This document shows, one piece after another, positions 1-61,762 of a stretch of DNA of 64,000 bases. Origin of the DNA: Syntrophales bacterium. Lineage in GTDB: Bacteria > Desulfobacterota > Syntrophia > Syntrophales > UBA2185. Under the pieces are notes generated by a model. The model did not search any database. It was not told where the DNA came from and saw nothing but the letters and a program-made list of their open reading frames with translations. Each line of letters starts with the position of its first letter. Position 1 is the stretch's first letter. Location: assembly GCA_052144335.1 (NCBI GenBank), contig JBKQQP010000053.1, forward strand, positions 62,818 through 126,817. The letters run 5' to 3'. A program made the translations under genes and the position numbers.

Positions 1-620
1 CTTTCTATGAGATTTTCTGCAATGGCGGCACAGTTAATCTTGACGAACGGATTATCCCGGCGCGGGCTGTTTTTGTGAATCGCATAGGCTATGAGATCTT
101 TGCCGGTGCCCGTTTCCCCAGAAATGAGCACGGTTGTCGTTGTTGGCGCCACTCTCTTGATCGTATCATATATTTTCAGCATCGGTTCACTGGACCCGAT
201 TATCCCTTGCCGGTCTATATCATCGGGGCTGACAAGCAGCTCTTCCTCATTGAGCCTTTGGGTCCTGATGGCCTTATGGATTGTATTTTTCAATTCATCG
301 CGCTCAAAAGGTTTAGTGATATAATCGAAGGCACCCTTCTTCAGCGCATCTACCGCCGTGGCAATAGTTCCATGAGCTGTGATAATGATAACCGGCGTAG
401 ATGGATAATCACGAATCACCCGCTCCAAAAGACCCACGCCATCGAGCTTCGGCATTCTTAGATCAGTCACGACGACTTGCACGCCGCCGCTCTTAAGGAC
501 CTTCAAGGCCTCGATTCCATCCGATGCCGTGGCCACATCATAACCTTCCTTATTCAGCAGGGCCTTCAGGACCAGCCGCATATTGAGCTCATCATCAACG
601 ACTAATATCTTCTCTGCCAT
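1..620 (-). CDS. sigma-54-dependent response regulator (NtrC/AtoC family), C-terminus cut by window edge
   Basis: Own reverse-strand translation from the ATG at 618-620. It reads [42 protein letters not shown]...[13 protein letters not shown] (receiver domain), then ...[37 protein letters not shown] (sigma-54-interaction AAA+ Walker A). It is absent from the ORF track because the frame runs off the window. Confidence 0.85.
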
Positions 621-661
621 AGTATGCCTTATAATTCCTTACCGTCTTTATCTCACGCTTC

Positions 662-2185
662 TCAAGTCGCGACACCCAGCCTGATATAGAATATGCTCCC
701 CTGAAGCGGTATGGATTTTACCTTGATATGGCCGCCATGATTCTTGATGATCTTCTGGCTAATGGCAAGGCCAAGGCCGACTCCCCGCTCTTTGGTTGTA
801 AAAAATGGTTTAAAAATATTTTTCATTTCCTCTTTTTTGATTCCTTTTCCCGTATCCCTGATGGAAATGCCTATCGCCTCACCGTCACCGCTGCTGATCT
901 TAGATGTCCTGAAAATCAAGGTCCCGCCCTCAGGCATTGCCTCTATCGCGTTGAATGCTATGTTCAGGATTACCTGAACCAGCTGTTCCGCATCAACTTC
1001 GATGAGGGGTATATCCGGGCGCAACTCTTTTTCAATGACGATATTATCTGAACGCGGGCTCGCTTTGATGACCGATATGGCCTTCTCAATAACCTGATTA
1101 ACATCCTGCATCTTCACTTTAAGGGTATACGGTTTGGCATAATTGAGAAACTGGGATACAACGCTGTTCAACCGGTCTACTTCTTCTATTATGACGTCTA
1201 ACAGCTTCTGATGATCGCCGGCGTTCGATTCCGATCTAAGGTACTGGGCGGCGCCTTTGATGGAACCCAGGGGATTTCGTATTTCATGAGCCAACACGGG
1301 CGCCATTTCCTCGAGGAGGAGAGACTTCTCTTTCTCCAGCATTTCATCGAAGGCATAAAGGGATGTGAATACATCCTTCCCTTCCGGGTAGAAATAACTG
1401 AACATCATCTTTAAGACGAGTTTAAATGGTTCGATGGCAATGACAATTATCAGTGAGGCCAACATAATATGGGTGAAGGGGGGCGTTTCGCCCCTTCCGA
1501 ACAATCCCACAATCAGGGTAAATGCAATAGCGGCAAAAAGAGTGATGATAGAGAGTACAAGTGCCCTTCCCATGAGTTCATGCAACTCCGGCAGGCGGGG
1601 GTGTGTAATAAGAATCAGGACAAAATAAAGCAGGATTGCAATAAAGAGGTTGGATACGGGTGGAAAAGAAAATCCATAATAATAGAATATATCAAACGCG
1701 CTGAGGATTGCGGTTGCCCCACAGGCGCAAGCCAGATACACCATCCGGGTTCTTTCAACGCCTACGGGCCTATTTCTAATATACAGGATAAGGGCAACAT
1801 AACAGACAGCAATTGCAGTTCCGGCATATATTAAGAAGACCGTTTCCAGGTAGGGCCAGCTGTAAAGCGGGGAGAAAACGACAACGGCAAGGACAAAACT
1901 GAAGATTGTGCAGGATATGATATCTCTTTTTGTCAAGAAGGTCTGTTCACGAAGGAGAGAGCGTACAAATTTAATCGAACAGGGAGGGATGGCTATCAAT
2001 CCCGCGTATTCTATAATTCTCCAGTTATGACCGGTAAGAATTTCATTGAAAAAGGCGCCGCTCTTATAGAAAAAGATGGCGAGACAAAGTGAAGCAAAAG
2101 CCAGATGGGTAGGAACTTTTTTTTTATTTATAATCAGGGTAAGAGAAATTATCAGGCTGACCGTTGCTAATGTAAAGGTTTCCAT
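662..2185 (-). CDS. membrane sensor histidine kinase
   Basis: 507-aa ORF. The N-terminal half has about 8 hydrophobic segments. It is followed by the H-box HEIRNPLGSIKGAAQYL and HATPase_c motifs (NIAFNAIEAM, RDTGKGI, GVGLGLAIS). The stop lies 41 nt upstream of the regulator ATG at 620, so this looks like an HK->RR operon. Confidence 0.85.
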   Translation of the reverse strand: METFTLATVSLIISLTLIINKKKVPTHLAFASLCLAIFFYKSGAFFNEILTGHNWRIIEYAGLIAIPPCSIKFVRSLLREQTFLTKRDIISCTIFSFVLAVVVFSPLYSWPYLETVFLIYAGTAIAVCYVALILYIRNRPVGVERTRMVYLACACGATAILSAFDIFYYYGFSFPPVSNLFIAILLYFVLILITHPRLPELHELMGRALVLSIITLFAAIAFTLIVGLFGRGETPPFTHIMLASLIIVIAIEPFKLVLKMMFSYFYPEGKDVFTSLYAFDEMLEKEKSLLLEEMAPVLAHEIRNPLGSIKGAAQYLRSESNAGDHQKLLDVIIEEVDRLNSVVSQFLNYAKPYTLKVKMQDVNQVIEKAISVIKASPRSDNIVIEKELRPDIPLIEVDAEQLVQVILNIAFNAIEAMPEGGTLIFRTSKISSGDGEAIGISIRDTGKGIKKEEMKNIFKPFFTTKERGVGLGLAISQKIIKNHGGHIKVKSIPLQGSIFYIRLGVAT

Positions 2186-2282
2186 AAAGAATTGTCTTTT
2201 TAAATAATGATATATGAATGAAGATATAGATAAAAAACGAGGATGTCAAGAAAGACAAGAAGGAGATGATTAAACCGCGGGA

Positions 2283-2327
2283 GAAAAAAGGCCGAGCATG
2301 TTGTAAGCATGCTCGGCCACCTTTTTC
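2283..2327 (-). terminator. rho-independent terminator after the small lipoprotein gene (bidirectional appearance)
   Basis: 11-bp perfect stem GGCCGAGCATG (2290-2300) / CATGCTCGGCC (2308-2318) with a 7-nt loop. The A-run at 2284-2289 is a U-run on the minus strand. There is also a T-run at 2322-2326 on the plus side. Confidence 0.6.
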
Positions 2328-2346
2328 TTTCAAGATATTACCAATG

Positions 2347-2580
2347 CTACTTATGCGCGGGGGCAGCTGGTGCCGGTGCTGGTGCCGGTGGCGCTGGTGG
2401 GGCCGCTGGCGCTCCCGGTGCCGGTGCTGGCGCTCCTGGTGCTGCCGGGGCCGGAGCCGCTGCTTCTTTCTTCGCAGGCTCAGGCGGTTTCTTCTCTGGT
2501 GCTGATGGGCAGCCTACTAATGTAAATGTAACCGCCACGACGAAAAGAATTGATAAAATGATTGCAAGCAGTTTCCTCAT
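2347..2580 (-). CDS. small secreted Pro/Ala-rich lipoprotein (hypothetical)
   Basis: 77 aa. The signal peptide plus lipobox is MRKLLAIILSILFVVAVTFTLVGC. The remainder is low-complexity: PSAPEKKPPEPAKKEAAAPAPAAPGAPAPAPGAPAAPPAPPAPAPAPAAPAHK. A strong SD (AAGGAGG) sits about 8 nt upstream of the ATG and a terminator follows directly. Confidence 0.6.
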   Translation of the reverse strand: MRKLLAIILSILFVVAVTFTLVGCPSAPEKKPPEPAKKEAAAPAPAAPGAPAPAPGAPAAPPAPPAPAPAPAAPAHK

Positions 2581-2909
2581 CGATTCTTACCTCCTTTGTG
2601 AAAAAAGTTTCTGTCGTTGGTAAATCAACCCGTTCCTTGATGCTGGGAAGATACTCCATATATTTTTGCCTTGTCAAGATAAATTTTTTGCCGTTTGAAG
2701 AATACTCCCGAGCAGTTGTGATCAGCAGAAATGGTCTCCAATTTTGCATTATTATATGATGCGTAATCGCATACGCACTGCAAAGAGAATTACGCGTTAT
2801 AAGCCCGTAGCACCCCCTTCTGGAAGCCACCCGGAAAAATCAAATTAATCATAAATTAGTCAATAAATATGGGTCATTATAGTCCACAGAAGGGTGCCAA
2901 ACATGCTCC

Positions 2910-2925
2910 TGGCACGGATAATGCT
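2910..2925 (+). promoter_or_regulatory. candidate sigma-54 (-24/-12) promoter of the lipid operon
   Basis: cTGGCACggataATGCTg compared with the consensus TGGCAC-N5-TTGCW. The invariant GG and GC are present at correct spacing. The element ends 47 nt upstream of the ATG at 2973 and is divergent from an NtrC-type regulator operon. Confidence 0.55.
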
Positions 2926-2972
2926 GGGCGCTTACAAGTTTATGGCAAAAATTTGCACGAAGGATTTCAGTA

Positions 2973-4172
2973 ATGGATTTTAATCTCACAAGCGCTCAAC
3001 AGATGTATGTAGATACAGTTAAGAGATTTGTCAGGCACGGAATTATACCGCAGGTTATGGAACTAGAAAAGAAGCATACTTTTCCCTGGGAAATTATCCA
3101 GAAAGCTTGGAGCCTCGGAATTTTGAATCTGAGCATCCCTGAATCGGTTAAAGGATTTGAGGTTGATCCCGTTTCCACAGCCCTTATTATTAAAGAACTA
3201 TCCTACGGAGATACCGGGATTTCCACGTCGGCAATGTGCAATGACCTCGCAAATACAGTTATTGCCCAACATGGTACGGATGAACAGAAGGCCCTTTTCT
3301 TAGGTCCCTTTGTCGAGAATCCCGTGATGGCCTCTTTCTGCCTGACGGAACCAGGCGCCGGTTCCGACAACTCTGCGATGACGACGTTCATCAAAAAGAG
3401 CCCCGATGGGACGTATGTCCTCAATGGCAGCAAGTGCTTCATCACCAATGCTTCCTATGCATCACAGTTCACCGTTTTTTGTAAAGTCGGCAAACCAACG
3501 GGCAATTTCATGGCCTGCTTAATAGTTCCCGCCCTGCAGGTGCTTCCCTCCAATTCGGATCCGCATCTCGCCCATGGCAAAGAGATGACTCTTCCCACGG
3601 GCGGAAAAATCATCATCGGAAAACCGGAAGACAAGCTGGGACAGCGTTTGTCAAATACGGCCGCCGTCACATTTGAAGACGTAGTTATCAATGAGAATCA
3701 GATAATCGGAGATCGGAGGCAGGGGTTCAAGTATGTCATCGACGTTCTTGACTATGCCCGCCCCATGGTTGCGGCAATTGGCGTGGGGCTCGCCAAACGG
3801 GCATTAGATGTTACTTTGGAATACACAAGAGAGCGCAAGCAATTCGGGCAAAGAATTTGTGATTTGCCGGTTGCAAGAGAGACCTTGGTGCTAATGTGGA
3901 AAAAGGTCGAGCTTGCGGATATGGCGCTCTTGAAAGCGGCTTGCAAGGTTCAGGAAAAAGCCGACGACAGGGGCATGTACGCCTCGCTCGCGAAGAATGC
4001 CGCCGCGGAGGCGGCCTTGTTCTGCGCCAACGAAGGCCTGCATCTCCATGGCGGATATGGATTCATGTCAGAATATGAAATCTCGAAGCTGGCAAGGGAT
4101 GCGCACATCATCGACATTTACGAGGGTGTGCGAGAGGTCCAGAACATGATTATCGGAAGGGAGCTTGTATGA
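2973..4172 (+). CDS. acyl-CoA (or acyl-ACP) dehydrogenase family flavoprotein
   Basis: 399 aa with ACAD-like sequence throughout (FCLTEPGAGSD, ...IYEGVREVQNMIIGREL with the catalytic-Glu context). The stop overlaps the next start (ATGA at 4169-4172). Confidence 0.85.
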   Translation: MDFNLTSAQQMYVDTVKRFVRHGIIPQVMELEKKHTFPWEIIQKAWSLGILNLSIPESVKGFEVDPVSTALIIKELSYGDTGISTSAMCNDLANTVIAQHGTDEQKALFLGPFVENPVMASFCLTEPGAGSDNSAMTTFIKKSPDGTYVLNGSKCFITNASYASQFTVFCKVGKPTGNFMACLIVPALQVLPSNSDPHLAHGKEMTLPTGGKIIIGKPEDKLGQRLSNTAAVTFEDVVINENQIIGDRRQGFKYVIDVLDYARPMVAAIGVGLAKRALDVTLEYTRERKQFGQRICDLPVARETLVLMWKKVELADMALLKAACKVQEKADDRGMYASLAKNAAAEAALFCANEGLHLHGGYGFMSEYEISKLARDAHIIDIYEGVREVQNMIIGRELV

Positions 4173-5161
4173 GTGTACTCTATCTTCACGGTATGGGCCA
4201 TTTCCACCCGGAGAATGTTATCACCAATAGATTTTTGGAAGAGATGGATATCGGAACAAATGAGACATGGATCATGGAGAGGGTTGGTATTCACACACGA
4301 CGCACCGTGCTCCCTTTGGACTATATAAAGGAGACGAAAAATAGAGACCCGAGAGAAGCCTTCGCGGCAGGCCTTTACAATAACGCGCAAACGGGCGCAT
4401 CTGCCGCGCGGATGGCCACCGAGCGCGCCGGACTCAAAAAGGAAGATATCGGGCTTGTCATCTCCGGTAGCTCGGCCGCAGATAATGCTTCACCTGCGGA
4501 AGCTTCCACCATAGCTGCGGAATTGGGAATCGATGTACCCTGCTTCGACGTGAATTCTGCCTGCACCAGCTTTGGAACACAGCTGCATCTTATGAGCCTC
4601 ATGCGGCCCGAGGCGCTGCCGCCTTTTGTCCTTCTGGTTAATCCAGAAAATCTCACGCGCTGTGTGGACTATGCCGATCGTAAATCCGCGGTGCTGTTCG
4701 GTGATGGCAGTTCCGCGGCGGTTATATCAGCCACGGTGCCGTCGCGCAAATCCTTCACGGCATGCGCTTATGAAACGAAACCGTCAGACTGGGATAAGGT
4801 GGGGATACCCCGCATGGGTTACTTCCACCAAGACGGGAATGCTGTCCAGGGCTTTGCCATTCGCAAGACAACAGATGCTATTCGCATGCTGCAAAAGACC
4901 TATGCACTCAACGGCAATCGCTTCATCTTTATCGGCCATCAGGCCAATATGGGCATGCTGAAAACTGTCTGCGAACGTTCGCAAATTACGGAAACCAATC
5001 ATTGGCACAATGTAGAATTTTTTGGCAACACCGGCTGCTCCGGAGCGCCGACTGTTCTCAGCCAACGGTGGAATGATCTCAAGCCGGGGGATCATGTGGC
5101 CATTGCCATTGTCGGGGCGGGACTGTCCTGGGTGCACATGGTCTTACAGGTAGAGGAATAA
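4169..5161 (+). CDS. 3-oxoacyl-ACP synthase III-like (KAS III / FabH family)
   Basis: 330 aa. The Cys-His-Asn triad contexts are present: DVNSACTSF, IGHQANMGML, FGNTGCSGAP. Confidence 0.8.
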   Translation: MSVLYLHGMGHFHPENVITNRFLEEMDIGTNETWIMERVGIHTRRTVLPLDYIKETKNRDPREAFAAGLYNNAQTGASAARMATERAGLKKEDIGLVISGSSAADNASPAEASTIAAELGIDVPCFDVNSACTSFGTQLHLMSLMRPEALPPFVLLVNPENLTRCVDYADRKSAVLFGDGSSAAVISATVPSRKSFTACAYETKPSDWDKVGIPRMGYFHQDGNAVQGFAIRKTTDAIRMLQKTYALNGNRFIFIGHQANMGMLKTVCERSQITETNHWHNVEFFGNTGCSGAPTVLSQRWNDLKPGDHVAIAIVGAGLSWVHMVLQVEE

Positions 5162-5163
5162 TC

Positions 5164-5757
5164 ATGAAGTATGCGGAATTCAGAGAATGTCAGAGCTTCG
5201 GGCTGGAGCAACTCATCGCTTTTTCCTACGGGACACTGGTAGATGATCCGCCTGCAAATTTCGAGGCCCGTTTACCGGCACCCCCCTTTCTTATGGTAGA
5301 TCGGGTGCTCTCATTTTCTACTGTCGGCAGGCAAGGTTCGATCGTAGCCGAACAGGATATTAAACTGGACGCCTGGTATTTTCAGTGCCACATGCCCGGG
5401 GACCCGGTGCAGCCGGGCTGCCTCTGTGTAGATGCGGTGTGGCAACTTCTGGGTTTTTATTGTGTATGGCGCGGTGCCTTAGGCGCTGGCAGGGCCCTCG
5501 GTTGCGGTGAGATTACCTTCAGCGGTCAGATTCGCCCTTATAATAAATGCGTCCGCTACGATATTGAAGTGAGACGTTTCGCCCAATTGAAGGACTCGGG
5601 CGCGAGCATTGCAATTGGAGACGGTAAAGTTTTTGTCGACAATGAACTGATTGCCCACATCAAAGATGCCCGTACGGGTGTTTTCAAGGAGATTATCTAT
5701 CCTGACTATCCGAAAAGATCGGTAAACTCTATCGGCGGCATCATGAGGAGTGGCTGA
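5164..5757 (+). CDS. fabA: FabA-type 3-hydroxyacyl-ACP dehydratase/isomerase
   Basis: 197 aa. From memory it aligns along its length with E. coli FabA. Matches are LPAPPFLMVDRV (E. coli LPAPNMLMMDRV), DAWYFQCHMPGDPVQPGCLCVDAVWQLLGFY ([31 protein letters not shown]) and GRALGCGEITFSGQIRP (GRALGVGEVKFTGQVLP). Confidence 0.8.
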   Translation: MKYAEFRECQSFGLEQLIAFSYGTLVDDPPANFEARLPAPPFLMVDRVLSFSTVGRQGSIVAEQDIKLDAWYFQCHMPGDPVQPGCLCVDAVWQLLGFYCVWRGALGAGRALGCGEITFSGQIRPYNKCVRYDIEVRRFAQLKDSGASIAIGDGKVFVDNELIAHIKDARTGVFKEIIYPDYPKRSVNSIGGIMRSG

Positions 5758-6485
5758 TGAGTGAGAAACCTGTTGCCATTGTAACGGGCGGCGGAAGAGG
5801 AATAGGTGCGGCTTGTTGCCGGGCGCTGTCAAAAGAAGGATTTCTGGTGGGCATTCACTATCGGAGCAGCCAGGAACAGGCAAGAGCTTTGCTCTCTGAG
5901 ATAGGTGATGGCTTTCTTCTTCAGGCTGATCTCACCAATGTGGATCAGGTGGAAGCCTTGGTCAACAAGACAAAAGAGGACGCGGGCCGCGTGGATGTCC
6001 TTGTCAATAGTGCCGGACTATCTCTCAATGCCGATATCGTCAGCATGAAGATCGAGCAATTCGATGCCCAGCGGGCCTTGATGCGCGGCATATGGTTTCT
6101 CACCAAACGCATAATCCGCCTCTTCATGCTGCGTCAGAGGGGAGGCCGCATCATAAATATATCGAGCGTCGTGGGACATACCGGCAATGCCGGCCAGATC
6201 CCATACACCATGGAAAAGGCCGCTCTCGACGCTTTTACAAAGTCCCTGTCGAAAGAACTGGCGGGAAGGAATATCCTCGTCAATTCCGTTGCCCCGGGAT
6301 TCATTGAGACAGAGATGACACAGAATCTCCCCGAAGAGGTGCAGCGGAGGATCCTCGAGAATATTACCCTGGGCCGCATGGGACGCCCCGAAGAGGTGGC
6401 GGAGGTGGTGGCCTTTCTCGCAACAAGGGGTTCCTATATATCGGGAAGCGTCATCCATGTGAATGGGGGGCTCTATGGCGGCTGA
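5757..6485 (+). CDS. fabG: 3-oxoacyl-ACP reductase (SDR, FabG-like)
   Basis: 242 aa with the cofactor motif TGGGRGIG, the catalytic YTMEK (YxxxK) and NSVAPGFIETEM. The ATG overlaps the preceding stop by 1 nt. Confidence 0.8.
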   Translation: MSEKPVAIVTGGGRGIGAACCRALSKEGFLVGIHYRSSQEQARALLSEIGDGFLLQADLTNVDQVEALVNKTKEDAGRVDVLVNSAGLSLNADIVSMKIEQFDAQRALMRGIWFLTKRIIRLFMLRQRGGRIINISSVVGHTGNAGQIPYTMEKAALDAFTKSLSKELAGRNILVNSVAPGFIETEMTQNLPEEVQRRILENITLGRMGRPEEVAEVVAFLATRGSYISGSVIHVNGGLYGG

Positions 6486-6951
6486 TCGGGAAACGATGAC
6501 ACGAATTCTAAATAGTGTTCCTCAGGAGCATCCCTTTCGCTTTATCGACGATATATTGGAACTGGATGATGAACACATTGTAGGCACTTACCGCTTTCGT
6601 GAGGATGAGTATTTTTACAAGGGACACTTCCCCGGCCAGCCGATCACCCCAGGTGTCATTCTCATCGAAGCCATGGCACAGACGGGGGTTGTCGCCTTCG
6701 GCCTTTATCTTCACATGAGGCAGACCCATACAACTGTGGAGGATGCAAAAAAGCTGACTACATTATTTACCCTTGCCGAAGGAGTGGAGTTCACGGGGGT
6801 CGTACATCCCGGTGAGCGAGTGATCGTTAAAGGTCACAAAGTCTATTTTCGCATGGGAAATCTGAAAATGAAGGTTTCCATGGAAAGAGAAAATGGAGAG
6901 ACGGTGAGTTCCGGCATACTTGCCGGGAGGGGAGTGCCTTCCCGGATTTAG
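6463..6951 (+). CDS. FabZ-like hotdog-fold 3-hydroxyacyl-ACP dehydratase
   Basis: 162 aa with HPFRFIDDILELD...YFYKGHFPGQPITPGVILIEAMAQTG, a FabZ-type His context. The start is uncertain between 6463 and the ATG at 6475. Either start overlaps the fabG stop at 6483-6485. Confidence 0.7.
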   Translation: MGGSMAADRETMTRILNSVPQEHPFRFIDDILELDDEHIVGTYRFREDEYFYKGHFPGQPITPGVILIEAMAQTGVVAFGLYLHMRQTHTTVEDAKKLTTLFTLAEGVEFTGVVHPGERVIVKGHKVYFRMGNLKMKVSMERENGETVSSGILAGRGVPSRI

Positions 6952-6983
6952 CGCTTAATGATTTCTATGGAGGTTTACTTTAG

Positions 6984-8276
6984 TTGAAAAGAAGGGTCGT
7001 CATAACCGGGATGGGAATAGCAGCCCCCAATGCCCACGGCTTGGTCAATTTTGAAGATGCCCTGCGGAAAGGCCTCTCCGGCATCCGGTTTTTTCCTGAA
7101 CTTAAGGAATTGAACTTTTCTTGCCAGATAGGCGCGGCCCCGCACGACTTTGACAATATCCGCAAGGGCTATTTTAATGAAGATACACTGATGTCGATGA
7201 ACGAAAATATCGGCTACGCAGCTGTTTCTGCCGTAGACGCATGGACCGACGCCGGTTTCAAGATGCCTGACATTCACGATGATACGGTGGACTGGGATAC
7301 AGGCGTAATTGTCGGCTCCGGAATCGGCGGCATGGATACAATTACAACCATTCTCGTGCCCATGGTCTCCCAAGGAAAAGTGCGCCGCATGGGAAGCCGT
7401 ATAGTGGAGCAGGTGATGAACAGCGGCACAAGCGCATGTATCGCGGGCCTCTTGGCCCTCGGGAATCAGGTGACTTCAAATTCGTCTGCCTGCAGCACGG
7501 GGAATGAGGCGATTGTTGAAGGGATGTGGAGAATACGGAATGGTCTTGCAAAGAGGGTCTTGGCCGGTGGCTCTGAAGGCCAATCCCCTTTTATCTGGGC
7601 CGGATTCGAGGCCATGCGCGTTATCTGCAAGAAGTTTAATGATTACCCGGAGGCTGCTTCACGGCCGATGAGCGCCACCGCATGTGGTTTTGTCCCCGGG
7701 TCGGGTGCTGGAATTCTGGTGCTTGAAGACCTGGAATCCGCGCTGGCACGTGGAGTAAGAATTTATGCTGAAGTTCTCGGAGGCGCTGTCAATTGCGGAG
7801 GGCATCGTATGGGCGGCTCCATAACCGCACCGAATCCCGAGGGTGTCAAACGATGCATCAAGGCCGCCATATCCGACGCATGTATTGTGCCGGCTGATAT
7901 AGACGCAATCAACGGCCACTTAACGGCAACCTTTGCCGATCCTTATGAAGTGAAGAATTGGTCGGCAGCCCTCGAGCGCGGCCCCGCCAATTTTCCCTAC
8001 ATCAATTCCACAAAATCTATGGTGGGGCATTGCTTAGGCGCAGCGGGCGCGATAGAGAGCGTTGCCGTCGTATTGCAATTATACAAGGGTTTCCTCCATC
8101 CTTCCGTTAATTGTGAGGATATACACCCCGATATCGCTGAATTTAAAGATAAGGTGCCACAGAAGTGCATGGATTATCCTGAATTAAATATGATCGCCAA
8201 AGCCGGTTTCGGCTTCGGCGATGTGAACAGCTGTCTCATCTTCAAGAGATGGAATAATAACCAAAGGAGCTATTAA
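6984..8276 (+). CDS. beta-ketoacyl-ACP synthase (KAS I/II family, divergent)
   Basis: 430 aa with a TTG start and GGAGG 10 nt upstream. The Cys-His-His contexts are NSSACSTGNEA, INGHLTATFADP (unusual compared with HGTST) and STKSMVGHCLGAAG. Confidence 0.85.
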   Translation: MKRRVVITGMGIAAPNAHGLVNFEDALRKGLSGIRFFPELKELNFSCQIGAAPHDFDNIRKGYFNEDTLMSMNENIGYAAVSAVDAWTDAGFKMPDIHDDTVDWDTGVIVGSGIGGMDTITTILVPMVSQGKVRRMGSRIVEQVMNSGTSACIAGLLALGNQVTSNSSACSTGNEAIVEGMWRIRNGLAKRVLAGGSEGQSPFIWAGFEAMRVICKKFNDYPEAASRPMSATACGFVPGSGAGILVLEDLESALARGVRIYAEVLGGAVNCGGHRMGGSITAPNPEGVKRCIKAAISDACIVPADIDAINGHLTATFADPYEVKNWSAALERGPANFPYINSTKSMVGHCLGAAGAIESVAVVLQLYKGFLHPSVNCEDIHPDIAEFKDKVPQKCMDYPELNMIAKAGFGFGDVNSCLIFKRWNNNQRSY

Positions 8277-8279
8277 GAA

Positions 8280-8528
8280 ATGGACGAACAGACAATTTTT
8301 AACAAAATGATCGATATCCTCAGGGGCTACACGAAGGACCCGACCTTGCTGGACAAGGCGACAAAGGATACCCACATTCTCAATGACCTCAAGGTCAATT
8401 CCGCCAGGCTGGTAGATGTAATTATAAAGTGTGAAGACACATTCGGCATCACCGTCGAAGATGACGAGGCCGATAAGATAGGTACAGTCGGAGATGCGGT
8501 GGCTATCATCAAAAGCAAATTAGGATAA
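8280..8528 (+). CDS. acyl carrier protein (dedicated)
   Basis: 82 aa with ACP-like helix pattern DLKVNSARLVDVIIKCEDTFGITVEDDE. The probable phosphopantetheine Ser lies in NSA rather than the usual DSL. An AGGAG SD is present. Confidence 0.7.
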   Translation: MDEQTIFNKMIDILRGYTKDPTLLDKATKDTHILNDLKVNSARLVDVIIKCEDTFGITVEDDEADKIGTVGDAVAIIKSKLG

Positions 8529-8536
8529 GGTCAGTC

Positions 8537-9346
8537 ATGAAGAAGATGTTGATGCTCCAGGGCCCTCTGCTGATTCAATACATGCTCGGTCAGATAGCTA
8601 TCTTTGTTATCGCCCCGCTTTATTTTTCAGTCATCTGGCTCATGGGCTACAGGGTGAGGAATATACAGAAGATCAGGCAGGAGTGTTCCCGTTATTTCAG
8701 GAATTACGAGGGGCCGTGGATCATCTGCGCGAATCACCTTACAATGATCGATTCCATGATCATTACATATGCGGTATTTTCTTTCACCCGTAATTTACTG
8801 CACTACCGTGAGCTGCCCTGGAATTTGCCAGAAAGAAGCAATTTCCAGCGGAATACTTTCATGGCAATCCTGTGCTACCTGGCCAAGTGCGTCCCCATCA
8901 ACAGGGGCGGCAATCGTGAAGAGATGAAAAAAACCCTTGATAAATGCACATCGCTTCTCGAATGGAAACAACCATTACTGATTTTTCCTGAAGGAGGGCG
9001 CTCCCGGACCGGCCGCGTGAATACCGAGAGTTTTTCCTACGGTGTGGGCCGGTTCATCAAAGATTTTGAAAACTGCAAGGTAATGTGTATCTATCTGCGA
9101 GGCGATAGCCAGCACTCTTACGGCTTCATTCCCAGATTTCGCGAGCGCTTTACAGTGAATGTGGAAGTCTTTCGGCCCGAACTAACACAAGAAAACGGAC
9201 TCAGGGCTCAGCGCAATTATGCAGAGCAGATCATCAACCACATGGCACAAATGGAGAAAGGTTATTTTGATTCGCATAGGCAACGATATTGTGGATCTGA
9301 CCGATCCGCACAATATGGGGACGAGTCGGAATACGCGATTCATTAA
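8537..9346 (+). CDS. lysophospholipid/glycerolipid acyltransferase (PlsC/LPLAT family)
   Basis: 269 aa with an N-terminal TM segment, the HX4D motif CANHLTMIDS and IFPEGGRSRTG. Confidence 0.75.
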   Translation: MKKMLMLQGPLLIQYMLGQIAIFVIAPLYFSVIWLMGYRVRNIQKIRQECSRYFRNYEGPWIICANHLTMIDSMIITYAVFSFTRNLLHYRELPWNLPERSNFQRNTFMAILCYLAKCVPINRGGNREEMKKTLDKCTSLLEWKQPLLIFPEGGRSRTGRVNTESFSYGVGRFIKDFENCKVMCIYLRGDSQHSYGFIPRFRERFTVNVEVFRPELTQENGLRAQRNYAEQIINHMAQMEKGYFDSHRQRYCGSDRSAQYGDESEYAIH

Positions 9347-9923
9347 CCGAGTTTTCACGACCGGTGAACAAGAACTAATATCCCGTGCTCATAACCAGGA
9401 CACCGTCTTATGGGCGCTCTGGGCAGGCAAGGAGGCAGCGTACAAGCTTGTCAAGAAGCATGACCCCTCCGTCAATTCTGTCCCCAGGTTATATGAAGTG
9501 AGTCTGGATTGCGCGGAGGAATCAGTTGGACCTTCTCCTGGAAGCAATGCCCTTACAGGATTCGTCACTACACCACGCGGCAGGGTTCAGATCAGGATTT
9601 TCATAACGCCCGACTATGTTCATTGTATCGGAACTACATCTGCACTGGATCAGATGGATGCGCTCGTTTGGCATGTGGACCGCATCAGCCCCGATTCACA
9701 GGCCTCTCCCGATTATGAATCGATATTTGTGCGTAAAGCCCTCAAGCTCCGCCTCTCAGAACATTATGATGAATCTCCGGAAAATATCGAAATCTGGCGG
9801 GTGAACAGTCCTTATGGTCTGGGACCGCCATTCGTCTGCATAAGCGGTGAATCCGCGGCAATCGATGTCAGTCTCAGTCATGACGGCCTCTTTACCGCCT
9901 ATGTCTTTGCCGCAAACGCTTGA
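9219..9923 (+). CDS. 4'-phosphopantetheinyl transferase
   Basis: IRIGNDIVDL near the N-terminus and WAGKEAAYKL further in. The start is uncertain. The ATG at 9219 gives a 128-nt out-of-frame overlap with the previous gene. A TTG at 9267 preceded by GGAGAAAGG gives an 80-nt overlap. Confidence 0.7.
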   Translation: MQSRSSTTWHKWRKVILIRIGNDIVDLTDPHNMGTSRNTRFINRVFTTGEQELISRAHNQDTVLWALWAGKEAAYKLVKKHDPSVNSVPRLYEVSLDCAEESVGPSPGSNALTGFVTTPRGRVQIRIFITPDYVHCIGTTSALDQMDALVWHVDRISPDSQASPDYESIFVRKALKLRLSEHYDESPENIEIWRVNSPYGLGPPFVCISGESAAIDVSLSHDGLFTAYVFAANA

Positions 9924-9926
9924 GTC

Positions 9927-10430
9927 CTACGCTGTCTCCCCTTTCAGAAATTTGTCTTCTATGAGATCGGCAATGCCCCGGATATCATCGATATCAAGGC
10001 AGGGTACGCCTTTGTCTACGGGCTCGTCACTCACAATGGCCAAAAGATTATCTTCTCGTGAACAGAGAGGGTCGTGCTTCATTTCCGCTCGCACCACCTC
10101 AATTTTTGGATACGGATTTCTTTTAAAACCTTCGGAAAGGATGATGTCGACGTCACGTATATAGCGATCCCGCAATTCCGCCAATTCAAGGTCCCTGTCC
10201 ACATCCTCAATGACAGCGACGGTATGGGGTGATGCGATGACCGTGAGGCGCGCCCCAGCCTTCTTGTGCCGCCAGCTGTCTTTGCCCTCGTGGTCTATGT
10301 CGAAGCCGTGGATGTTGTGTTTGATCGTAGCCACCTGATAGCCCCTTCGCCTCAGCTCCGGTATCAACTTTTCGATCAGCGTCGTCTTCCCGGTATTCGA
10401 TCGACCGACTATAGATATTATGGGTATCAA
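9927..10430 (-). CDS. mobB: molybdopterin-guanine dinucleotide biosynthesis adapter MobB
   Basis: IISIVGRSNTGKTTLIEKLIPELRRRGYQVATIKHNIHGFDIDHEGKDSWRH. I prefer the TTG start at 10430 (GAAGGGGAAAGG upstream, TTGA overlap with the GNAT stop) over the ORF-track start at 10556. Confidence 0.8.
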   Translation of the reverse strand: MIPIISIVGRSNTGKTTLIEKLIPELRRRGYQVATIKHNIHGFDIDHEGKDSWRHKKAGARLTVIASPHTVAVIEDVDRDLELAELRDRYIRDVDIILSEGFKRNPYPKIEVVRAEMKHDPLCSREDNLLAIVSDEPVDKGVPCLDIDDIRGIADLIEDKFLKGETA

Positions 10431-10951
10431 GTGCCTTTCCCCTTCATACCGAACGCCCGCCGTTCCGCAAGAACGACGGATGTTTCGATCTGACGTTCCG
10501 GTATCGACCAGTATCGTTTCAGCAAGCGATCCTTTTCTTCGGGAGAGACCAGACAAAAGCCATGCGCCTCATAGAAACGAACCGCCCAGACTGCCGCCGC
10601 CCAGGTGCCGATCAGGATCGGACGGGACGCTTTCTTCCGAAGTTCCGACAATAGCCTGCCGCCGATGCCCTGGCGGCGCCTCACCGTACGCACGTATGCA
10701 TGTCTCATCAACGTTACATCCTCTATATCCTGCGTGCCCATGACTCCCAGAAGTTCCCCATTCTTTATATAACTCCAGAATTTTACTCCTTCGTCAATTT
10801 CATGTCGGAGTTCATCTTTCGACATATAGGGTTCCTTCCATCTATCCGTGGGAATGATGCCTCTGTAAGCCTCGGCAGCGTCGTTAATAATCTCATAGAT
10901 AATTTCAAAATCCCTTTCCCCGCAGGGACGGATCTCAAGATGGCTCGTCAT
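10427..10951 (-). CDS. GNAT family N-acetyltransferase
   Basis: 174 aa with the acetyl-CoA binding motif VRRRQGIGGRLL. The start overlaps the upstream stop (ATGA at 10948-10951). Confidence 0.8.
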   Translation of the reverse strand: MTSHLEIRPCGERDFEIIYEIINDAAEAYRGIIPTDRWKEPYMSKDELRHEIDEGVKFWSYIKNGELLGVMGTQDIEDVTLMRHAYVRTVRRRQGIGGRLLSELRKKASRPILIGTWAAAVWAVRFYEAHGFCLVSPEEKDRLLKRYWSIPERQIETSVVLAERRAFGMKGKGT

Positions 10952-11481: not shown

Positions 11482-12249
11482 TTATTTAACGAACAGGTTT
11501 ACGAACCTGAGATAAGGTCGCATCGCCGGTGTGCCGCCGCCTTCGGAGATGATCTGCATGCATTTCCCGGCATCCCTGACTACGGCGCCTCCCAGGTGGT
11601 GGACAGGCGTTCCCTGAAAAATTTCGGGCAGGAGGGGTGTCGAGGGGCCGAGAATGGCTACATGCCTTGGATTGCCCAAGCCATTCAGAACTTCTTCCAG
11701 GGTGTCATTAAGAAGTGCGGTTGCCGTAACAATCGCTACAGTGCATTCCTTCAATATCCTGTCACTGTCTTTTTTATCGAGAACTGCCAGACGGGCGGGG
11801 TTCCGTTCAATGACGGTGAGCTTCGCTCCCGTTCTTTCGATCTTCGGAACCATCGGCGTGAAGAGACCGACCATGGCCACATGATCTTCCGGCTTCAATT
11901 TCATGATCGAGAGGGAGTCTCTTTCATCTTCACCGAATTCTGCATGGAGAACGGCATTCGCAGCAGCAAGTCCTAAGGCTCTTTTTAGGGGATCCTGTCC
12001 TTCCGTGATGTTTATGAGGAGAGAGGTTGCCTTTGATCCGGCCAATCTTCCAGCCTCGGGAAATACGGAGCAGCCCCATGGCAGCTCGTGGAGCAACAGG
12101 GCCGCGAGCCCCACGCATCGGTCATTCAGCATCACCCCCACGTAGCCGAGGCCGATGCGAACCTCTTCGATCACGGCGTTTTTCCCTCTATGAAACACAA
12201 TGTCAAAGAGACGGCGAGCTATTTCACCTTTCGGAAGCATGGCGTTCAC
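11482..12249 (-). CDS. DUF4213/DUF364 protein (annotated elsewhere as a putative heavy-metal-chelation Rossmann-like domain)
   Basis: 255 aa with EEVRIGLGYVGVML...GLAALL...ALGLAAANAVL then VAMVGLF...VAIVTATALLNDTLEEVL...VAILGPSTPLLPE. This is recognised from memory of the family pattern. The GTG start at 12249 overlaps the TGA of the giant ORF (GTGA). Confidence 0.6.
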   Translation of the reverse strand: MNAMLPKGEIARRLFDIVFHRGKNAVIEEVRIGLGYVGVMLNDRCVGLAALLLHELPWGCSVFPEAGRLAGSKATSLLINITEGQDPLKRALGLAAANAVLHAEFGEDERDSLSIMKLKPEDHVAMVGLFTPMVPKIERTGAKLTVIERNPARLAVLDKKDSDRILKECTVAIVTATALLNDTLEEVLNGLGNPRHVAILGPSTPLLPEIFQGTPVHHLGGAVVRDAGKCMQIISEGGGTPAMRPYLRFVNLFVK

Positions 12250-15200
12250 ATCGAATAATGGGTAAATCGCTTGTCGGATGCAAATCCCTCACCCTCCTTT
12301 TTTGCGCCGGTCTTTGTCGGTTTTTTATCATCGGAGATTTTTTCATCGCGTGCGTCTCTCCTCTTTTTCCCCTTACTTTTCTTGTGAGACGCTGGCGCCT
12401 CTCCTAGAGCGTTGCTCCAGGTGTCTACCAAACCGGCCAGCTCTCCCAAATTGGTCAACTCCTCAACCCATACTTCTGTAAATCTTGATCTCAGAGCAGG
12501 TGACAGCAGGTTTCGCGATTGATGCACGGAGGGAGGATTCATTGAAAGAAATATCCGGAAATTAGGATGGGCGTGACAGACATTCTCCTCTCCATCGATG
12601 ACGTAGCCGAAGTCCAGCAGAGTGTTTAAGTATTCGGACAGGGGGGAGAGATTCGCTTCGTCTATGAGGAGCCAGCTGCCCTTCTCCATGGCCATGAACA
12701 GCAGGCCTTTCCTGTAATGCCATTTCCCCTTCTTGTCTTGAGTATAACCGCCCAGAAGCTCCTCCAGTCCCGTATCGGAGGAGAGGTTGACATAGTAGAG
12801 GTCCGTCTCTTTTTGACCGGCCAGATATCTGATGAGAGTGGTCTTTCCTGAAGCGGGATTTCCCGCCACAAGCAGAGGTTCGTTATTTATCAGGGCCTTC
12901 AGGAGGAGATAGAGGATCATGTTCTGCGTCGGCGTAGGTACAATCGCTGCGTCATGTCGGGGAATCAATGCATCTCCCTTTGACGCTGTTAAGGCTGCAA
13001 GCAGGGAATCCAAATCCAAAGAAGCGGACATGAGCACTTCTTTTAGGTCCAGGCCCTCAGCCCGGAAACCAAAATGTGCATCCAAGAGACTGACCACTGC
13101 CTCTCTTTCGGAGCTGTCCCGAAGCCTCCCTATATAAACACTGAAGAACTCCAGGAAAAACTTTTTGAAATATTCCTTGTCGGCTGATCTATTCGCGAGG
13201 AGTGGCTCCAATCTCCTCCCCAGTCTTATTACATCCCTGAGGGTAAATATATACGGGTCTTTTTCCGCCTTGCCGATGATGCGGCTATCCGCCTGATTCT
13301 GTAAAGTGGTGTGGAATCTGGCAATGGGAAGGGCGGAGGCGGAAGTAATCTCAAATAAGGAACTTAGTATCTGGGACAGTTCCTCTTCAGAGAGCTCTTT
13401 CTGGTAAAGGATCTTGAACCTGGACAAGAATACCTCCGAGAGTTTCTGCCTCTGGCTGTAGCTTTCCGGGTTCCCTGTGGCAAAAAGTCTGAAATCGGGA
13501 TGGGGATACAATTCCCTCTGCTCCCCGTTTGCCGAGTAGGATATCCTTCCCGTAATGAGATAGTCATTCATTATCTCGACCACTTCGGAAGATGCCAGGT
13601 TTATCTCTTCGAGAGTCAGCCACAGGCCATCACGCGCTGCATTCAGAAGAATACCGTCCTGCCAGATGAATCTGCCCTCCCTGTCAGGTTTAATGCCTCC
13701 GATTATCTCAAACTTGGAGGTGTAGGGGTTGATGGAATACGAGAGATGCTCATAGCCCAAGACGTGAGCGAGCCATTTAATCAAGAAGCTCTTCCCCGTT
13801 GATGTAGGGCCCAGGAGCAGGACGGAGTGTCTCAAGAGATAGCCTATACATAATGTCTCCAAAATATGGTAGCCGGACTCCGTCATCACGCAGGCAGGTA
13901 TATCGTACCGCTGCTCTGCCCTCTTTAAAAGAAGATCTCCCACTGTTAAAGATTGTTCACCGATCTGCACTTGGCCCGCATGCGTACCTGCTATGGTATT
14001 TCTCATAGGTTCACCGAGCATCTCATTGAAGGAAGCGAGCGCCTTGATAAATTCCTTCTCCCTGCCCGAGATTATATCCGAAAAGATTCTTATTGCCGCC
14101 CGTGCCGCGGCCTGACGGACGGACCAGATCTTATCCTTCAATCTCTTTTCCAGTTTGTTTAATTCGACGTCATTCCCCCGTCTGATAAGGGCGTGTTGTA
14201 TCTGGACCAAGGCAAGTGCGGCAGCCTGGTGTACAAACCAGTTTTCATCCTTCAAGCTTGCTTCCAACTCTTTTGAAGTTACCTTCTTCCGATGATAGCT
14301 GCGAGGCCAGATGCGGCCCAGGGCCTGCGCTGCGGCCTGGCAGACGGATCTGTCCACATCCGCGTCTCTCAATCTGTCTTCCAAATTCCCTAAGTTCACA
14401 TTTTTCCCCCGTCCGATGAGGCCGGGATAGATCTGCCCCAGGGCCTGGCATGTAGCCTGACGGACAGGCCAGCTGGGGTCTTCGAGCCTCTTTTCCAAAT
14501 CTTTCAAAGCCATCCTGCCATGGTAATAGCTGTGGAACCATATCCGACCTAAGGCCACCGCAGCGGCCTGGCGGACCGACCAGTCGTCGTCGTCGAGCCT
14601 TTCTGCCAATTTTCCCAAATTAACATCTCGCCCACGCTTGATGAGGGGCGGATAGACCTGACCCAAGGCCACGGCGACGGTTTGACGGGTCAGTATGTTT
14701 TTATCTTTCAACCTTTCTTCTAACCCCTCCAGGTTGATCTCTATTCCCTTTCTGATAAGAGCGCCGTAGGTCTGCCCCAGGGCCTCGGCCTCGGCCTGGC
14801 GAACAAACCAGTTCTTATTCCACAACCCTTCTTCCAATTTGCCGATGTTCACATTCATTCCCTGTTCCATAAGGGGCGGATATATCCTGCCTAATGCCCT
14901 TGCCGCAGCTTGGCGGACGGCCCAGTTTTCGTCCCGCAGCCTGTGCTCCAATGTCCCCAGCGTTATTTTCCCCTTGCGATAATAATAATACCATATCCGG
15001 CTTAAAGCCTGGGCGGCGGCGCGGCAGACGGACGGATCTTCATCCTTCAGCATTTCCTCGAGCAGACTCAAATCCACATCTTTTCCCTGTTTGATTAGCG
15101 CGAGATAGACCCGGCCCAAGGCTGAGGCTGCGGGCTGGCGGACAGCCCAGCTTTTATCCTCTAATTTTTTCTCGAGCTCCTCGATGGCTATTTCTTTTAG

Positions 15201-17663: not shown

Positions 17664-17945
17664 AGCTGTAGTTGTCTTCAAAAAATAGTTTTCATTCCTG
17701 CGCGCAAGAATCCGAAAAGGGAAGCATAGAAGAAAACGGGTGGGTGTGTCAATGGGAAAAGGGCCATCGAATTGTCTCGTAGAAAGAGAAGCTGGATAAA
17801 CCACACAAAGAAACACACCCATCATCCATTCCCTGATCCGAAATTCAGGTTTTTTAAAACTGGATTTTATGAATTCTACGATGGATGAAATTTCTCATCA
17901 GCCTTAGATTTTGCTTGTAATTTGAAAATACCAAGGGGGAACAAA

Positions 17946-43439: not shown

Positions 43440-43512
43440 TGCCTTACAGGCCGCTGCACAGATGAACTGGCGGCTTTTCTATTTTCTAAACAGCAAGGAG
43501 CACGTAGCAAAT

Positions 43513-45186: not shown

Positions 45187-45209
45187 AAAATAATTGCGGA
45201 GGTTCTGCC

Positions 45210-45722
45210 ATGTTAAGAAAAGCACGCGAAAAGGAACAGACCGTTTCCATTCTGGTAAACAATCAGCCGGGTGTGCTGTCCCGTGTGGGAGGCGTATTTG
45301 GCCGACATGGATACAACATCAAAAGCCTTTGCGTAGCGGAAACGACGAACCCAGATGTTTCGAGAATCACGCTGACCAGCGAATCGGATCCTGACTTTAC
45401 TGAAAAGATAAAAAAACAACTGGACAAGCTTGTAGATGTAATCGATGTCTCCGATGTCTCAGGACAGTCCTACATTCAGAGAGAATTAATGTTGATCGGC
45501 GTCAATGTCAAAGAGGGAGCCTATCAAGAAATCCTGCGGGCGATTGAAGTGTTAGGCTGCAGAATCGTCACCATGACACCGGATTATTTCATCCTGGAAT
45601 TGACGGGTCAGCCGGATGAAACGGCCGCATTCCTGAAATTCTTTCAATCATTCGGCGTAGAGGAAATAAATAGAACTGGCCTAATCGCCCTGCAAAGAAC
45701 CAGGCCCAAGAGAAAAGTCTAG
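45210..45722 (+). CDS. ilvN: acetolactate synthase small (regulatory) subunit, copy 1
   Basis: 170 aa with an ACT domain, VSILVNNQPGVLSRVGGVFGRHGYNIKSLCVAETTNPDVSRITL. Confidence 0.9.
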   Translation: MLRKAREKEQTVSILVNNQPGVLSRVGGVFGRHGYNIKSLCVAETTNPDVSRITLTSESDPDFTEKIKKQLDKLVDVIDVSDVSGQSYIQRELMLIGVNVKEGAYQEILRAIEVLGCRIVTMTPDYFILELTGQPDETAAFLKFFQSFGVEEINRTGLIALQRTRPKRKV

Positions 45723-45797
45723 AACAATTACAAAAATATTCTTGACAATACTATGGGAGGCTGTTAAGAAGGTCCCATAGTGAGGATTGATAACGAC

Positions 45798-45875
45798 ATG
45801 CACGCGCTTACCATCGCAAACATCATCATAATTATTATCGGCGTAATCATTCCCTTCCATAGGGAGGCTGGATGA
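45798..45875 (+). CDS. Ile-rich leader peptide of ilvBN-2 (attenuator)
   Basis: Encodes MHALTIANIIIIIIGVIIPFHREAG (25 aa; 9 Ile, with six consecutive). GAGGA lies 11 nt upstream and a terminator lies 35 nt downstream. Confidence 0.65.
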   Translation: MHALTIANIIIIIIGVIIPFHREAG

Positions 45876-45910
45876 TGGTTTGCGTTTAGCACATAGTTCG
45901 CAGTTAAAAG

Positions 45911-45943
45911 ACCGTTACCAGCCAAAGGTAACGGTTTTTTTTT
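45911..45943 (+). terminator. attenuator terminator upstream of ilvBN-2
   Basis: Stem ACCGTTACC (45911-45919) / GGTAACGGT (45927-45935) with a 7-nt loop, followed by a run of 9 T. Confidence 0.7.
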
Positions 45944-46047
45944 GGAGAAATATCCCTACAGGTATTAAGCAGGGAAGGATCCCATCCTCGACGCCATAAT
46001 GTCGCGGGGCGCTGACGGCGGGATTTTAAACAAGGGGGTAGAGAAAA

Positions 46048-47736: not shown

Positions 47737-47780
47737 GATATACTAGAATATATCAAATTCATTGTGAGGTGAATGAGCTT

Positions 47781-48266: not shown

Positions 48267-48342
48267 ATGCAAACTAGTTTTAGGAGCGGACACCACACAA
48301 TACTATAAATAATTTAATTCATAACAATAAGGAGGAGCTAAT

Positions 48343-49389: not shown

Positions 49390-49465
49390 GAAATGACTAA
49401 GCGGAGGAGTAGCAACATGCGACTGTATAACTTCCGCGCATTGCAAAAAATATAAGGAGGAAAAC

Positions 49466-61756: not shown

Positions 61757-61762
61757 ATGGTA

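Follow-up and report, generated by a model that had tools for sequence, protein, structure and literature searches.

We examined a 64,000-nucleotide stretch of DNA from a Syntrophales bacterium (GenBank assembly GCA_052144335.1, contig JBKQQP010000053.1, positions 62,818 to 126,817 of the forward strand; hereafter the window), which close to its left end carries a nine-gene operon of fatty-acid-synthase-like make-up. It is likely that this operon is controlled by a classical enhancer-dependent switch, formed by an adjacent kinase/regulator pair, an enhancer of two abutting dyads and a sigma-54 promoter in front of the first gene. Members of the Syntrophales are key degraders of fatty acids and aromatic compounds in methanogenic peat, sediments and digesters, and most of them are uncultured. 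To our knowledge, almost nothing is known about gene regulation in this order. The putative control region is made up of the following elements, given in window coordinates.

2760-2777, no strand: enhancer dyad 1, TGCGTA-N6-TACGCA, matching TGCGNA-N6-TNCGCA at 10/10 positions and conserved in orthologous loci
2779-2796, no strand: enhancer dyad 2, TGCAAA-N6-TACGCG, matching at 8/10 positions and beginning 1 nt past dyad 1
2797-2908, no strand: predicted looping spacer from the enhancer to the -24 element, 113 nt to the TGG at 2910
2909-2926, + strand: predicted sigma-54 promoter CTGGCACGGATAATGCTG, with GG at 2911-2912 (-24), GC at 2923-2924 (-12) and exactly 10 nt between them

An earlier note on this DNA had described a near-consensus -24/-12 element with correctly spaced dinucleotides, located just before the first ATG of the operon. 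Our analysis bears out both points. The GG-N10-GC spacing is exact, and scored over the 13 positions of YTGGCACG-N4-TTGCW the element CTGGCACGGATAATGCTG matches at 12, or at 10 of the 11 positions of the core TGGCAC-N5-TTGCW. A 12/13 match is unique in the 64 kb, with ~0.23 expected when both strands are counted. The element is separated by 46 nt from the operon ATG at 2973, which is preceded by a ribosome-binding site (RBS), GAAGGA, at 2959-2964. Standard sigma-54 geometry predicts a transcription start near 2936 and thus a 5' untranslated region of ~37 nt. The sequence GTGCCA (2894-2899) forms a perfect 6-nt inverted repeat with TGGCAC (2910-2915), spanning the -24 element; the relatives do not conserve this repeat, which is therefore probably due to chance.

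The same note had pointed out that the inverted repeat at 2760-2777 lies at a typical distance for an activator site. The repeat is indeed there and is conserved, and it turns out to be only half of the putative enhancer, the other half being the second dyad at 2779-2796. Together the two dyads form a palindrome of ~37 bp, whose outer arms (2755-2767 and 2789-2801) were picked up independently by a repeat finder. A 6+6 inverted repeat is in itself unremarkable, as the 392-nt intergenic region contains 10 inverted pairs, counting this one. We scored each dyad out of 10 against TGCGNA-N6-TNCGCA and the double dyad out of 20. The window site reaches 18/20, whereas shuffling the whole window 30 times gave no score above 15. 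No second double dyad was found elsewhere in the 64 kb, and a lone 9/10 dyad at 58559-58576 is at chance level. The dyad centers lie at ~-167 and ~-148 relative to the predicted start, and the spacer between enhancer and promoter is mildly AT-rich (0.58 versus 0.51 for the window).

Taken by itself, neither the promoter match nor the inverted repeat is decisive, and it is a comparison of the control region across related genomes that makes them so. Species-representative genomes were scanned with the first protein of the operon, yielding 41 orthologous loci, nearly all of them from Syntrophales metagenome-assembled genomes (MAGs). In 40 of these the first operon protein is 72-95% identical, and in the remaining one (L043), from a Candidatus Margulisiibacteriota MAG, it is 61% identical. 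The same nine genes are found in the same order across the orthologous loci. The upstream regions (n = 42) were searched jointly, taking the best double dyad first and then the best GG-N10-GC element downstream of the dyads. A region was counted when its double dyad scored at least 15/20 and a GG-N10-GC element scoring at least 8/11 followed 80-120 nt downstream on the operon strand. This module is present in 30 of the 42 upstream regions, always on the operon strand and with 87-113 nt between its two parts. Five control sets, among them the reverse complements, coding sequence from further downstream (3.5 kb), shuffled sequences and 38 non-orthologous acyl-CoA dehydrogenase (ACAD) loci, did not yield it once. 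The double-dyad arrangement on its own is present in 34/42 regions. Four loci that appear to lack the promoter have variant -24/-12 elements at the expected place, and two others have dyads with altered spacing.

Across 33 loci the distance from the dyads to the -24 element is 87-113 nt, and there is little or no variation at the core positions, in contrast to freely varying spacers and flanks. The enhancer in these loci reads TG[C/T]GTA-N6-T[T/A]C-N-CA, then 1 nt, then TGC[G/A]AA-N6-TAC[G/A]CA, giving the 37-bp consensus TGCGTA-N6-TTCGCA-N-TGCGAA-N6-TACGCA. The family promoter consensus is TGGCA[T/C]G-N-AT-NN-TGCT, with GG and GC invariant in 33/33 loci and a variable spacer. When the window is compared with L008, the most distant relative of the same layout, intergenic conservation is concentrated in the -35 element of a sigma-70-like promoter, the dyads, the -24/-12 element and the RBS.

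A scan of the 500 nt upstream of the ACAD gene, the first gene of the operon in the window, gave the impression of poor promoter conservation, which we rejected as an artefact of fabD being placed first in most relatives. In these genomes a fabD-like gene lies ahead of the ACAD gene, and the module is found ~1.05-1.4 kb upstream of the ACAD gene, in front of fabD. The module thus tracks the start of the operon and not the ACAD gene, and the position of the promoter relative to the first operon gene, as seen in the window, is kept in the relatives. The fabD-like gene, encoding a malonyl-CoA:acyl carrier protein (ACP) transacylase with the motif VFPGQGSQ, is the first gene behind the promoter in L012, L021, L024 (4844-5839), L027, L028, L031 and L042. 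No fabD was found in the window, in the matching contig L002, or in the available parts of L030 and L034, and the lineage of the window together with L030, L034 and L037 is without fabD at the operon start. In L031, an extra gene of 483 aa lies between fabD and the ACAD gene.

The sensor and the activator of the proposed switch are encoded to the left of the control region, on the opposite strand, in an interval that also contains a small open reading frame (ORF) and predicted transcription signals.

1-620, - strand: response regulator, 5' part (206 of 456 codons); Pfam Response_reg 3.6e-33, Sigma54_activat 1.3e-20
662-2185, - strand: sensor histidine kinase, 507 aa; Pfam HisKA 4.9e-15, HATPase_c 2.1e-23
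2221-2249, - strand: predicted sigma-70-like promoter ahead of the kinase gene, TTGACA-17-TATCTT, 10/12 in a consensus scan
2290-2318, - strand: predicted hairpin terminator GGCCGAGCATG...CATGCTCGGCC plus T-run, 3' of the small ORF, from a terminator scan
2347-2580, - strand: small ORF of 77 aa from the ORF list and its translation, with a signal peptide, the lipobox LVGC and a Pro/Ala-rich tail (PAPAPA-type repeats)
2648-2677, - strand: predicted sigma-70-like promoter pointing away from the operon, TTGACA-18-TATCTT, from a consensus scan

It had been noted before that a kinase with multiple transmembrane (TM) helices and a regulator with a sigma-54 AAA+ domain lie on the other strand. Both proteins are there, the regulator being cut by the window edge so that only 206 aa are visible. 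This part comprises the receiver (279-608), with Asp-53 at 462-464, and the AAA+ domain, which runs from 203 to the edge, covers the first 67 profile positions of Sigma54_activat (residues 140-206) and carries the Walker A motif GETGTGK at 99-119. The acidic pocket and phospho-acceptor of the receiver can be read from the sequence as D9/D10, D53, T81 and K103. The full 456-aa regulator is encoded in L002 (contig JBKQPI010000203.1, positions 11566-12936, from the Syntrophales MAG GCA_052145055.1), where the N-terminus of the regulator and the kinase are identical to those in the window. There, the domains are Sigma54_activat, AAA_lid_14 and a C-terminal HTH_8 (PF02954), with GETGTGK at residue 168 and GAFTGA at residue 215; GAFTGA and HTH_8 thus fall outside the window, as does the recognition helix ...LGLSRKGLQLKMIKYNL, which is conserved in the orthologues. 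The nearest solved structures are Aquifex NtrC-family proteins (4l4u, 1.3e-109; 1ny5, 2.3e-107). The regulator scores below the NCBIfam equivalog cut-offs of AtoC (485 versus 714 bits), NtrC (462.9 versus 558.6 bits) and ZraR (425.9 versus 760 bits), and we therefore regard it as an NtrC-family member that is not an orthologue of a named regulator.

The kinase gene is separated from the regulator gene by 41 nt. Hydropathy analysis predicts ~8 TM helices with short loops in residues 1-258 (window 1412-2185), followed by HisKA (1133-1312; H-box HEIRNP, His-300) and HATPase_c (674-994). The sensor region matches HisKA_7TM (PF16927) with 22.6 bits (1e-4), below the 28.6-bit cut-off. Six of the 10 orthologues scanned also match this family, five of them below threshold and L030 with 34.8 bits, and three have an additional weak match to 7TMR-DISM_7TM. 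We found no extracytoplasmic, PAS or HAMP domain in the sensor region and no solved homologue covering kinase residues 1-270. The catalytic core is closest to that of ZraS among solved structures (9jfj, 2e-44), and its best named NCBIfam family is AtoS, at 234 bits and below the cut-off of 646 bits. Judging from the 7TM-type architecture, the kinase may detect its signal within or at the membrane.

The pair had also been described as divergent from the operon promoter. The opposite orientation stands, while direct divergence does not, since the 77-aa ORF and the terminator intervene between the kinase gene and the promoter in the window. On the - strand, where its T-rich tail lies, the terminator has a stem of 11 pairs, including 8 G-C pairs (13 pairs on the + strand), and it sets the small ORF apart from the kinase gene. 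The lipoprotein-like 77-aa product has no Pfam match, and tblastn matches were found only in the closest relatives, L005-L007. The -35 element of the promoter at 2648-2677 (GTCAAG on the + strand) recurs by the dyads in many relatives, where it lies directly ahead of the kinase gene. The 77-aa ORF of the window stands behind a conserved TTGACA promoter that drives the kinase gene in other species. The compact divergent layout is the common one, and the layout with the small ORF is confined to the closest relatives.

In ~21 of the 41 loci the kinase/regulator pair is encoded upstream of the operon in the opposite orientation, at kinase identities of 44-92%, and the kinase start codon in these loci is usually 80-240 nt from the dyads. 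In addition, the regulator and the dyads vary together. The recognition helix SRKGLQLKM occurs with TGCGTA/TACGCA sites, and SRKGLHLKL occurs with TGTGTA/TACACA sites in L012, L014 and L015. Based on this co-change, which is seen in one clade, we predict that the dyads are the binding site of the adjacent regulator, and the altered helix could point to the residue that recognizes half-site position 3. Together with the conservation of the module in 30/42 regions and the synteny in ~21/41 loci, the co-change of helix and half-site supports the earlier proposal that the pair switches on the lipid cluster.

From the elements, their order-wide conservation, the domain assignments and the genetic linkage, all of which are in silico results, we infer how binding, phosphotransfer and transcription initiation might proceed, and what the signal and the product might be. 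The kinase would detect a stimulus in or at the membrane through its 7TM-type sensor region and, as is known for its family, would phosphorylate Asp-53 of the NtrC-family regulator. Regulator dimers would then fill the two abutting dyads at 2760-2796 and form an active AAA+ ring. Looping of the ~113-nt spacer would allow the GAFTGA loops to contact the sigma-54 holoenzyme waiting in a closed complex at TGGCAC-N5-ATGCT (2910-2925). ATP hydrolysis would open the promoter, with transcription starting near 2936, and a single mRNA is expected to span the nine genes from 2973 to 9923.

Several observations weigh against this interpretation. In the window the pair does not border directly on the control region, as the small ORF and its terminator lie in between, and ~16 loci keep the dyads and the promoter without a kinase or regulator within 6 kb. 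Adjacency is thus not obligatory, the cognate link rests on synteny elsewhere, and the pair would have to be encoded at another place in these ~16 species. The co-change of helix and half-site is confined to a single clade and therefore represents one evolutionary event, and L027 and L036 also have TGTGTA sites, with no regulator seen there. Motif positions in the relatives were picked by best score, which inflates their apparent invariance, a bias that the control sets address. The -12 element of the window promoter is ATGC and not TTGC. No conserved match to the integration host factor site WATCAANNNNTTR was found in the spacer, where the best matches are 7-8/9 at varying positions. The enhancer-promoter gaps cluster at ~88, 97-100 and 108-113 nt, and a Rayleigh test gave no specific 10.5-bp signal in these non-independent loci. 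Finally, rpoN was not found in the 64-kb window or the 9 kb to its left, nor was an RpoN box seen in the relatives' loci examined; its presence in the genome is supported indirectly by the intact GAFTGA activator nearby and by the RpoN gene reported in Syntrophobacter fumaroxidans, which belongs to a different order (PMC3570798).

The ~16 loci without a nearby pair, whose upstream genes are unrelated and differ from locus to locus, would be accounted for if promoter and dyads were functional but used by another enhancer-binding protein encoded elsewhere, with the adjacent pair controlling other genes. Related bacteria have dozens of such activators (31 in S. fumaroxidans, PMC3570798; up to 69 in Desulfobacteria, PMC12316311). 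We nevertheless consider this unlikely, as the pair adjoins the module in ~21 loci over a wide range of kinase divergence, with a kinase start usually close to the dyads, and as helix and half-site change together in L012, L014 and L015. No substitute activator was found in the pair-less loci, and across all loci the module has no further activator gene linked to it; an additional enhancer-binding protein was seen only in L026, and it is not an orthologue of the regulator. It is quite unlikely that the dyads are the operator of a factor other than an enhancer-binding protein, or that their main role is autoregulation at the divergent sigma-70 promoter of the kinase and regulator genes. Palindromes of 18 bp are bound by many regulator families, and in compact loci the dyads lie ~20 nt from a conserved TTGAC(-35)-like element facing the kinase gene. 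Their distance to the -24 element, however, is held at 87-113 nt in 33 loci, whereas that to the divergent gene ranges from 80 nt to >1.5 kb. Two abutting dyads ~100 nt or more upstream of a sigma-54 promoter represent the standard enhancer layout, as in AtoC and NtrC systems, and the neighborhood contains no further conserved regulator gene. A dual role of the dyads, as enhancer and in autoregulation, is compatible with the enhancer-dependent switch as well.

The -24/-12 match could in principle be a chance occurrence or a relic, with the operon being transcribed from an ordinary sigma-70 promoter. Weak sigma-70-like matches are present on the + strand at 2637-2664 and 2894-2922 (9/12 each), and a simple sigma-54 consensus at ≤2 mismatches is not enriched in the window (35 found versus 28 expected). 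Yet all 33 loci keep GG and GC at the exact spacing despite a variable spacer, none of the five control sets yielded the module, and an intact GAFTGA activator is encoded next door. We had considered the GATAAT inside the sigma-54 spacer as part of a sigma-70 promoter for the operon and rejected it, because it is absent as a conserved feature in the relatives. A chance or relic origin of the element is thus very improbable.

Under the enhancer-dependent switch, the target would be an operon of nine genes, arranged as follows.

2973-4172, + strand: gene 1, acyl-CoA dehydrogenase of 399 aa, resembling medium-chain acyl-CoA dehydrogenase (MCAD) (Pfam; PDB MCAD 2.4e-70), catalytic Glu in YEG
4169-5161, + strand: gene 2, 3-ketoacyl-ACP synthase (KAS) III, FabH-like, 330 aa, Cys-His-Asn triad intact, below FabH cut-offs
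5164-5757, + strand: gene 3, FabA-type dehydratase/isomerase, 197 aa, Pfam FabA 3.7e-38
5757-6485, + strand: gene 4, 3-oxoacyl-ACP reductase, FabG-like, 242 aa, from profile matches
6463-6951, + strand: gene 5, second hot-dog dehydratase, FabZ/ApeI-like, 162 aa, from profile matches
6984-8276, + strand: gene 6, KAS I/II, 430 aa from a TTG start (421 aa from a later start), Cys-His-His triad intact
8280-8528, + strand: gene 7, divergent ACP, 82 aa, Pfam PP-binding 1e-4, 22.9 bits versus a cut-off of 20.8
8537-9346, + strand: gene 8, PlsC/LPLAT-family acyltransferase, 269 aa, with HX4D and FPEGG motifs and a hydrophobic N-terminus
9219-9923, + strand: gene 9, 4'-phosphopantetheinyl transferase (ACPS superfamily), the last gene, from domain matches

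The genes are tightly packed on one strand with gaps of ≤32 nt or overlaps and are followed by a convergent mobB (9927-10556), and a terminator scan returned no convincing internal terminator. The earlier label of a lipid operon is a fair description. The KAS proteins score below the NCBIfam equivalog cut-offs of the housekeeping FabH and FabF, and gene 3 is above the cut-off of PRK05174 (195.9 versus 124 bits) and below that of TIGR01749 fabA (157 versus 238 bits). The divergent ACP and the sub-threshold FabH/FabF scores argue for an accessory rather than a housekeeping synthase. The operon looks like an accessory, conditionally expressed and self-contained type II fatty-acid-synthase-like pathway with an acyltransferase, and its product is most likely a special acyl chain that is fixed onto a lipid acceptor. 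The presence of FabA raises the possibility that this chain is unsaturated. No FabI-, FabK-, FabL- or FabV-type enoyl reductase was found in the operon. Gene 1 might act as an enoyl reductase in reverse, or might link beta-oxidation intermediates to synthesis. The protein is nearest to medium-chain acyl-CoA dehydrogenases (E 2e-70), as compared with 1e-36 for known acyl-ACP and prolyl-peptidyl carrier protein dehydrogenases. A related operon in L043 (6001-11525) encodes an ACAD, FabA, KAS III, a dehydratase, a KAS and an acyltransferase and is without dyads, sigma-54 element and kinase/regulator. As this operon is found in another phylum without the circuit, the pathway is older or more mobile than its Syntrophales control circuit.

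A more specific model would make the whole arrangement a lipid-homeostasis circuit peculiar to syntrophs, in which the 7TM kinase reads a bilayer property or a fatty acid or hydrocarbon substrate dissolved in the membrane and, by way of sigma-54, turns on the synthase, which puts acyl chains derived from beta-oxidation, by way of the MCAD-like ACAD, FabA, KAS III, the private ACP and the acyltransferase, into a special and possibly unsaturated membrane lipid. We regard this as rather unlikely; if true, the circuit would be the sigma-54 counterpart of DesK/DesR with a new enzymatic route.

We compared the window system to known two-component and sigma-54 systems. Its predicted design is textbook, like that of AtoSC-atoDAEB, ZraSR-zraP and NtrBC-glnAp2, and by its scores it is not an orthologue of any named system. 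The Escherichia coli AtoS/AtoC-atoDAEB system likewise combines a membrane kinase, an NtrC-family regulator (receiver, AAA+, Fis-type helix-turn-helix), a sigma-54 promoter and a fatty-acid-related operon, and AtoC and AtoS are the best-scoring named families for the window regulator and kinase core, both below the cut-offs for orthologues. AtoC reportedly acts through two neighboring palindromes that lie >100 nt ahead of the start site. Unlike the window kinase, which has a 7TM-type block and no other sensor domain, AtoS has two TM helices, a periplasmic domain and PAS domains. Moreover, atoDAEB is catabolic and acts on short-chain fatty acids, whereas the window operon is biosynthetic in make-up, and gene order and site sequence differ.

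ZraS/ZraR-zraP of E. coli and Salmonella shares with our system the divergent two-component genes, the sites in a shared intergenic region and the sigma-54 promoter. Among solved kinase structures, the catalytic core of ZraS comes nearest to the window kinase, and the window regulator has ZraR as one of its best matches, albeit with a score below the ZraR cut-off. In contrast, ZraS senses periplasmic zinc through a periplasmic domain, and its target zraP encodes an envelope-stress chaperone and not a lipid pathway. The zraSR genes are themselves sigma-54-dependent, whereas on the kinase side of the window only sigma-70-like promoters were seen.

NtrB/NtrC at glnAp2 provides the model for a phosphorylated receiver, a tandem dyad enhancer, DNA looping and GAFTGA contact with sigma-54 at GG-N10-GC. 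The window regulator falls below the NtrC equivalog cut-off, however, and NtrB is soluble and responds to PII, with nitrogen assimilation as the regulon. The NtrC half-site is TGCACC/GGTGCA, and that of the window is TGCGNA/TNCGCA. Aquifex NtrC1 and NtrC4 are the closest solved full-length structures to the window regulator. DesK/DesR-des of Bacillus subtilis is related by functional analogy only, in that a kinase whose sensor consists almost entirely of TM helices controls a gene acting on membrane acyl chains; DesK is a HisKA_3 kinase, DesR is a NarL-type regulator, the sigma factor is a different one, and a desaturase is controlled in place of a synthase operon.

Sigma-54 and an enhancer-binding protein also govern the supply of lipid building blocks in B. 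subtilis, where BkdR and SigL control the bkd operon. BkdR differs from the window regulator in being a one-component activator of the PAS type, and it turns on a catabolic dehydrogenase complex. In Desulfovibrio vulgaris, DVU2934 controls a single lipid A gene (DVU2917) in a sigma-54-dependent manner (PMC4641369). A full fatty-acid-synthase-like operon that encodes its own ACP along with an acyltransferase and a phosphopantetheinyl transferase is driven by neither BkdR nor DVU2934. A broader proposal holds that sigma-54 governs the cell exterior at large, phospholipid precursors included (PMC3162934), and it is generally known that lipid-related genes can come under sigma-54 control (PMC3162934; PMC4641369; PMC12316311). 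A literature search returned no description of the nine-gene operon, its regulator or its enhancer. The present analysis adds one more case to the known link of sigma-54 to envelope and lipid synthesis and leaves the overall picture unchanged. It defines an order-wide conserved regulatory unit of sensor, activator, 37-bp enhancer consensus, promoter consensus and target operon, which is usable for reading metatranscriptomes and flags an accessory, conditionally expressed fatty-acid synthase.

No Rfam or tRNA matches were found anywhere in the window. Its remainder contains further features. An ORF of 1859 aa on the - strand (12246-17825) has a VWA domain, many HEAT repeats, dynein/MoxR-type AAA_5 domains and a midasin-like lid. 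On the + strand, dnaA and dnaN lie side by side at 60251-62887, and as they adjoin there, the replication origin is probably located near 58-60 kb of the window. A branched-chain amino-acid cluster on the + strand (43462-51127) encodes two acetolactate-synthase-type thiamine pyrophosphate enzymes (574 and 562 aa), a ketol-acid reductoisomerase and a dihydroxy-acid dehydratase.

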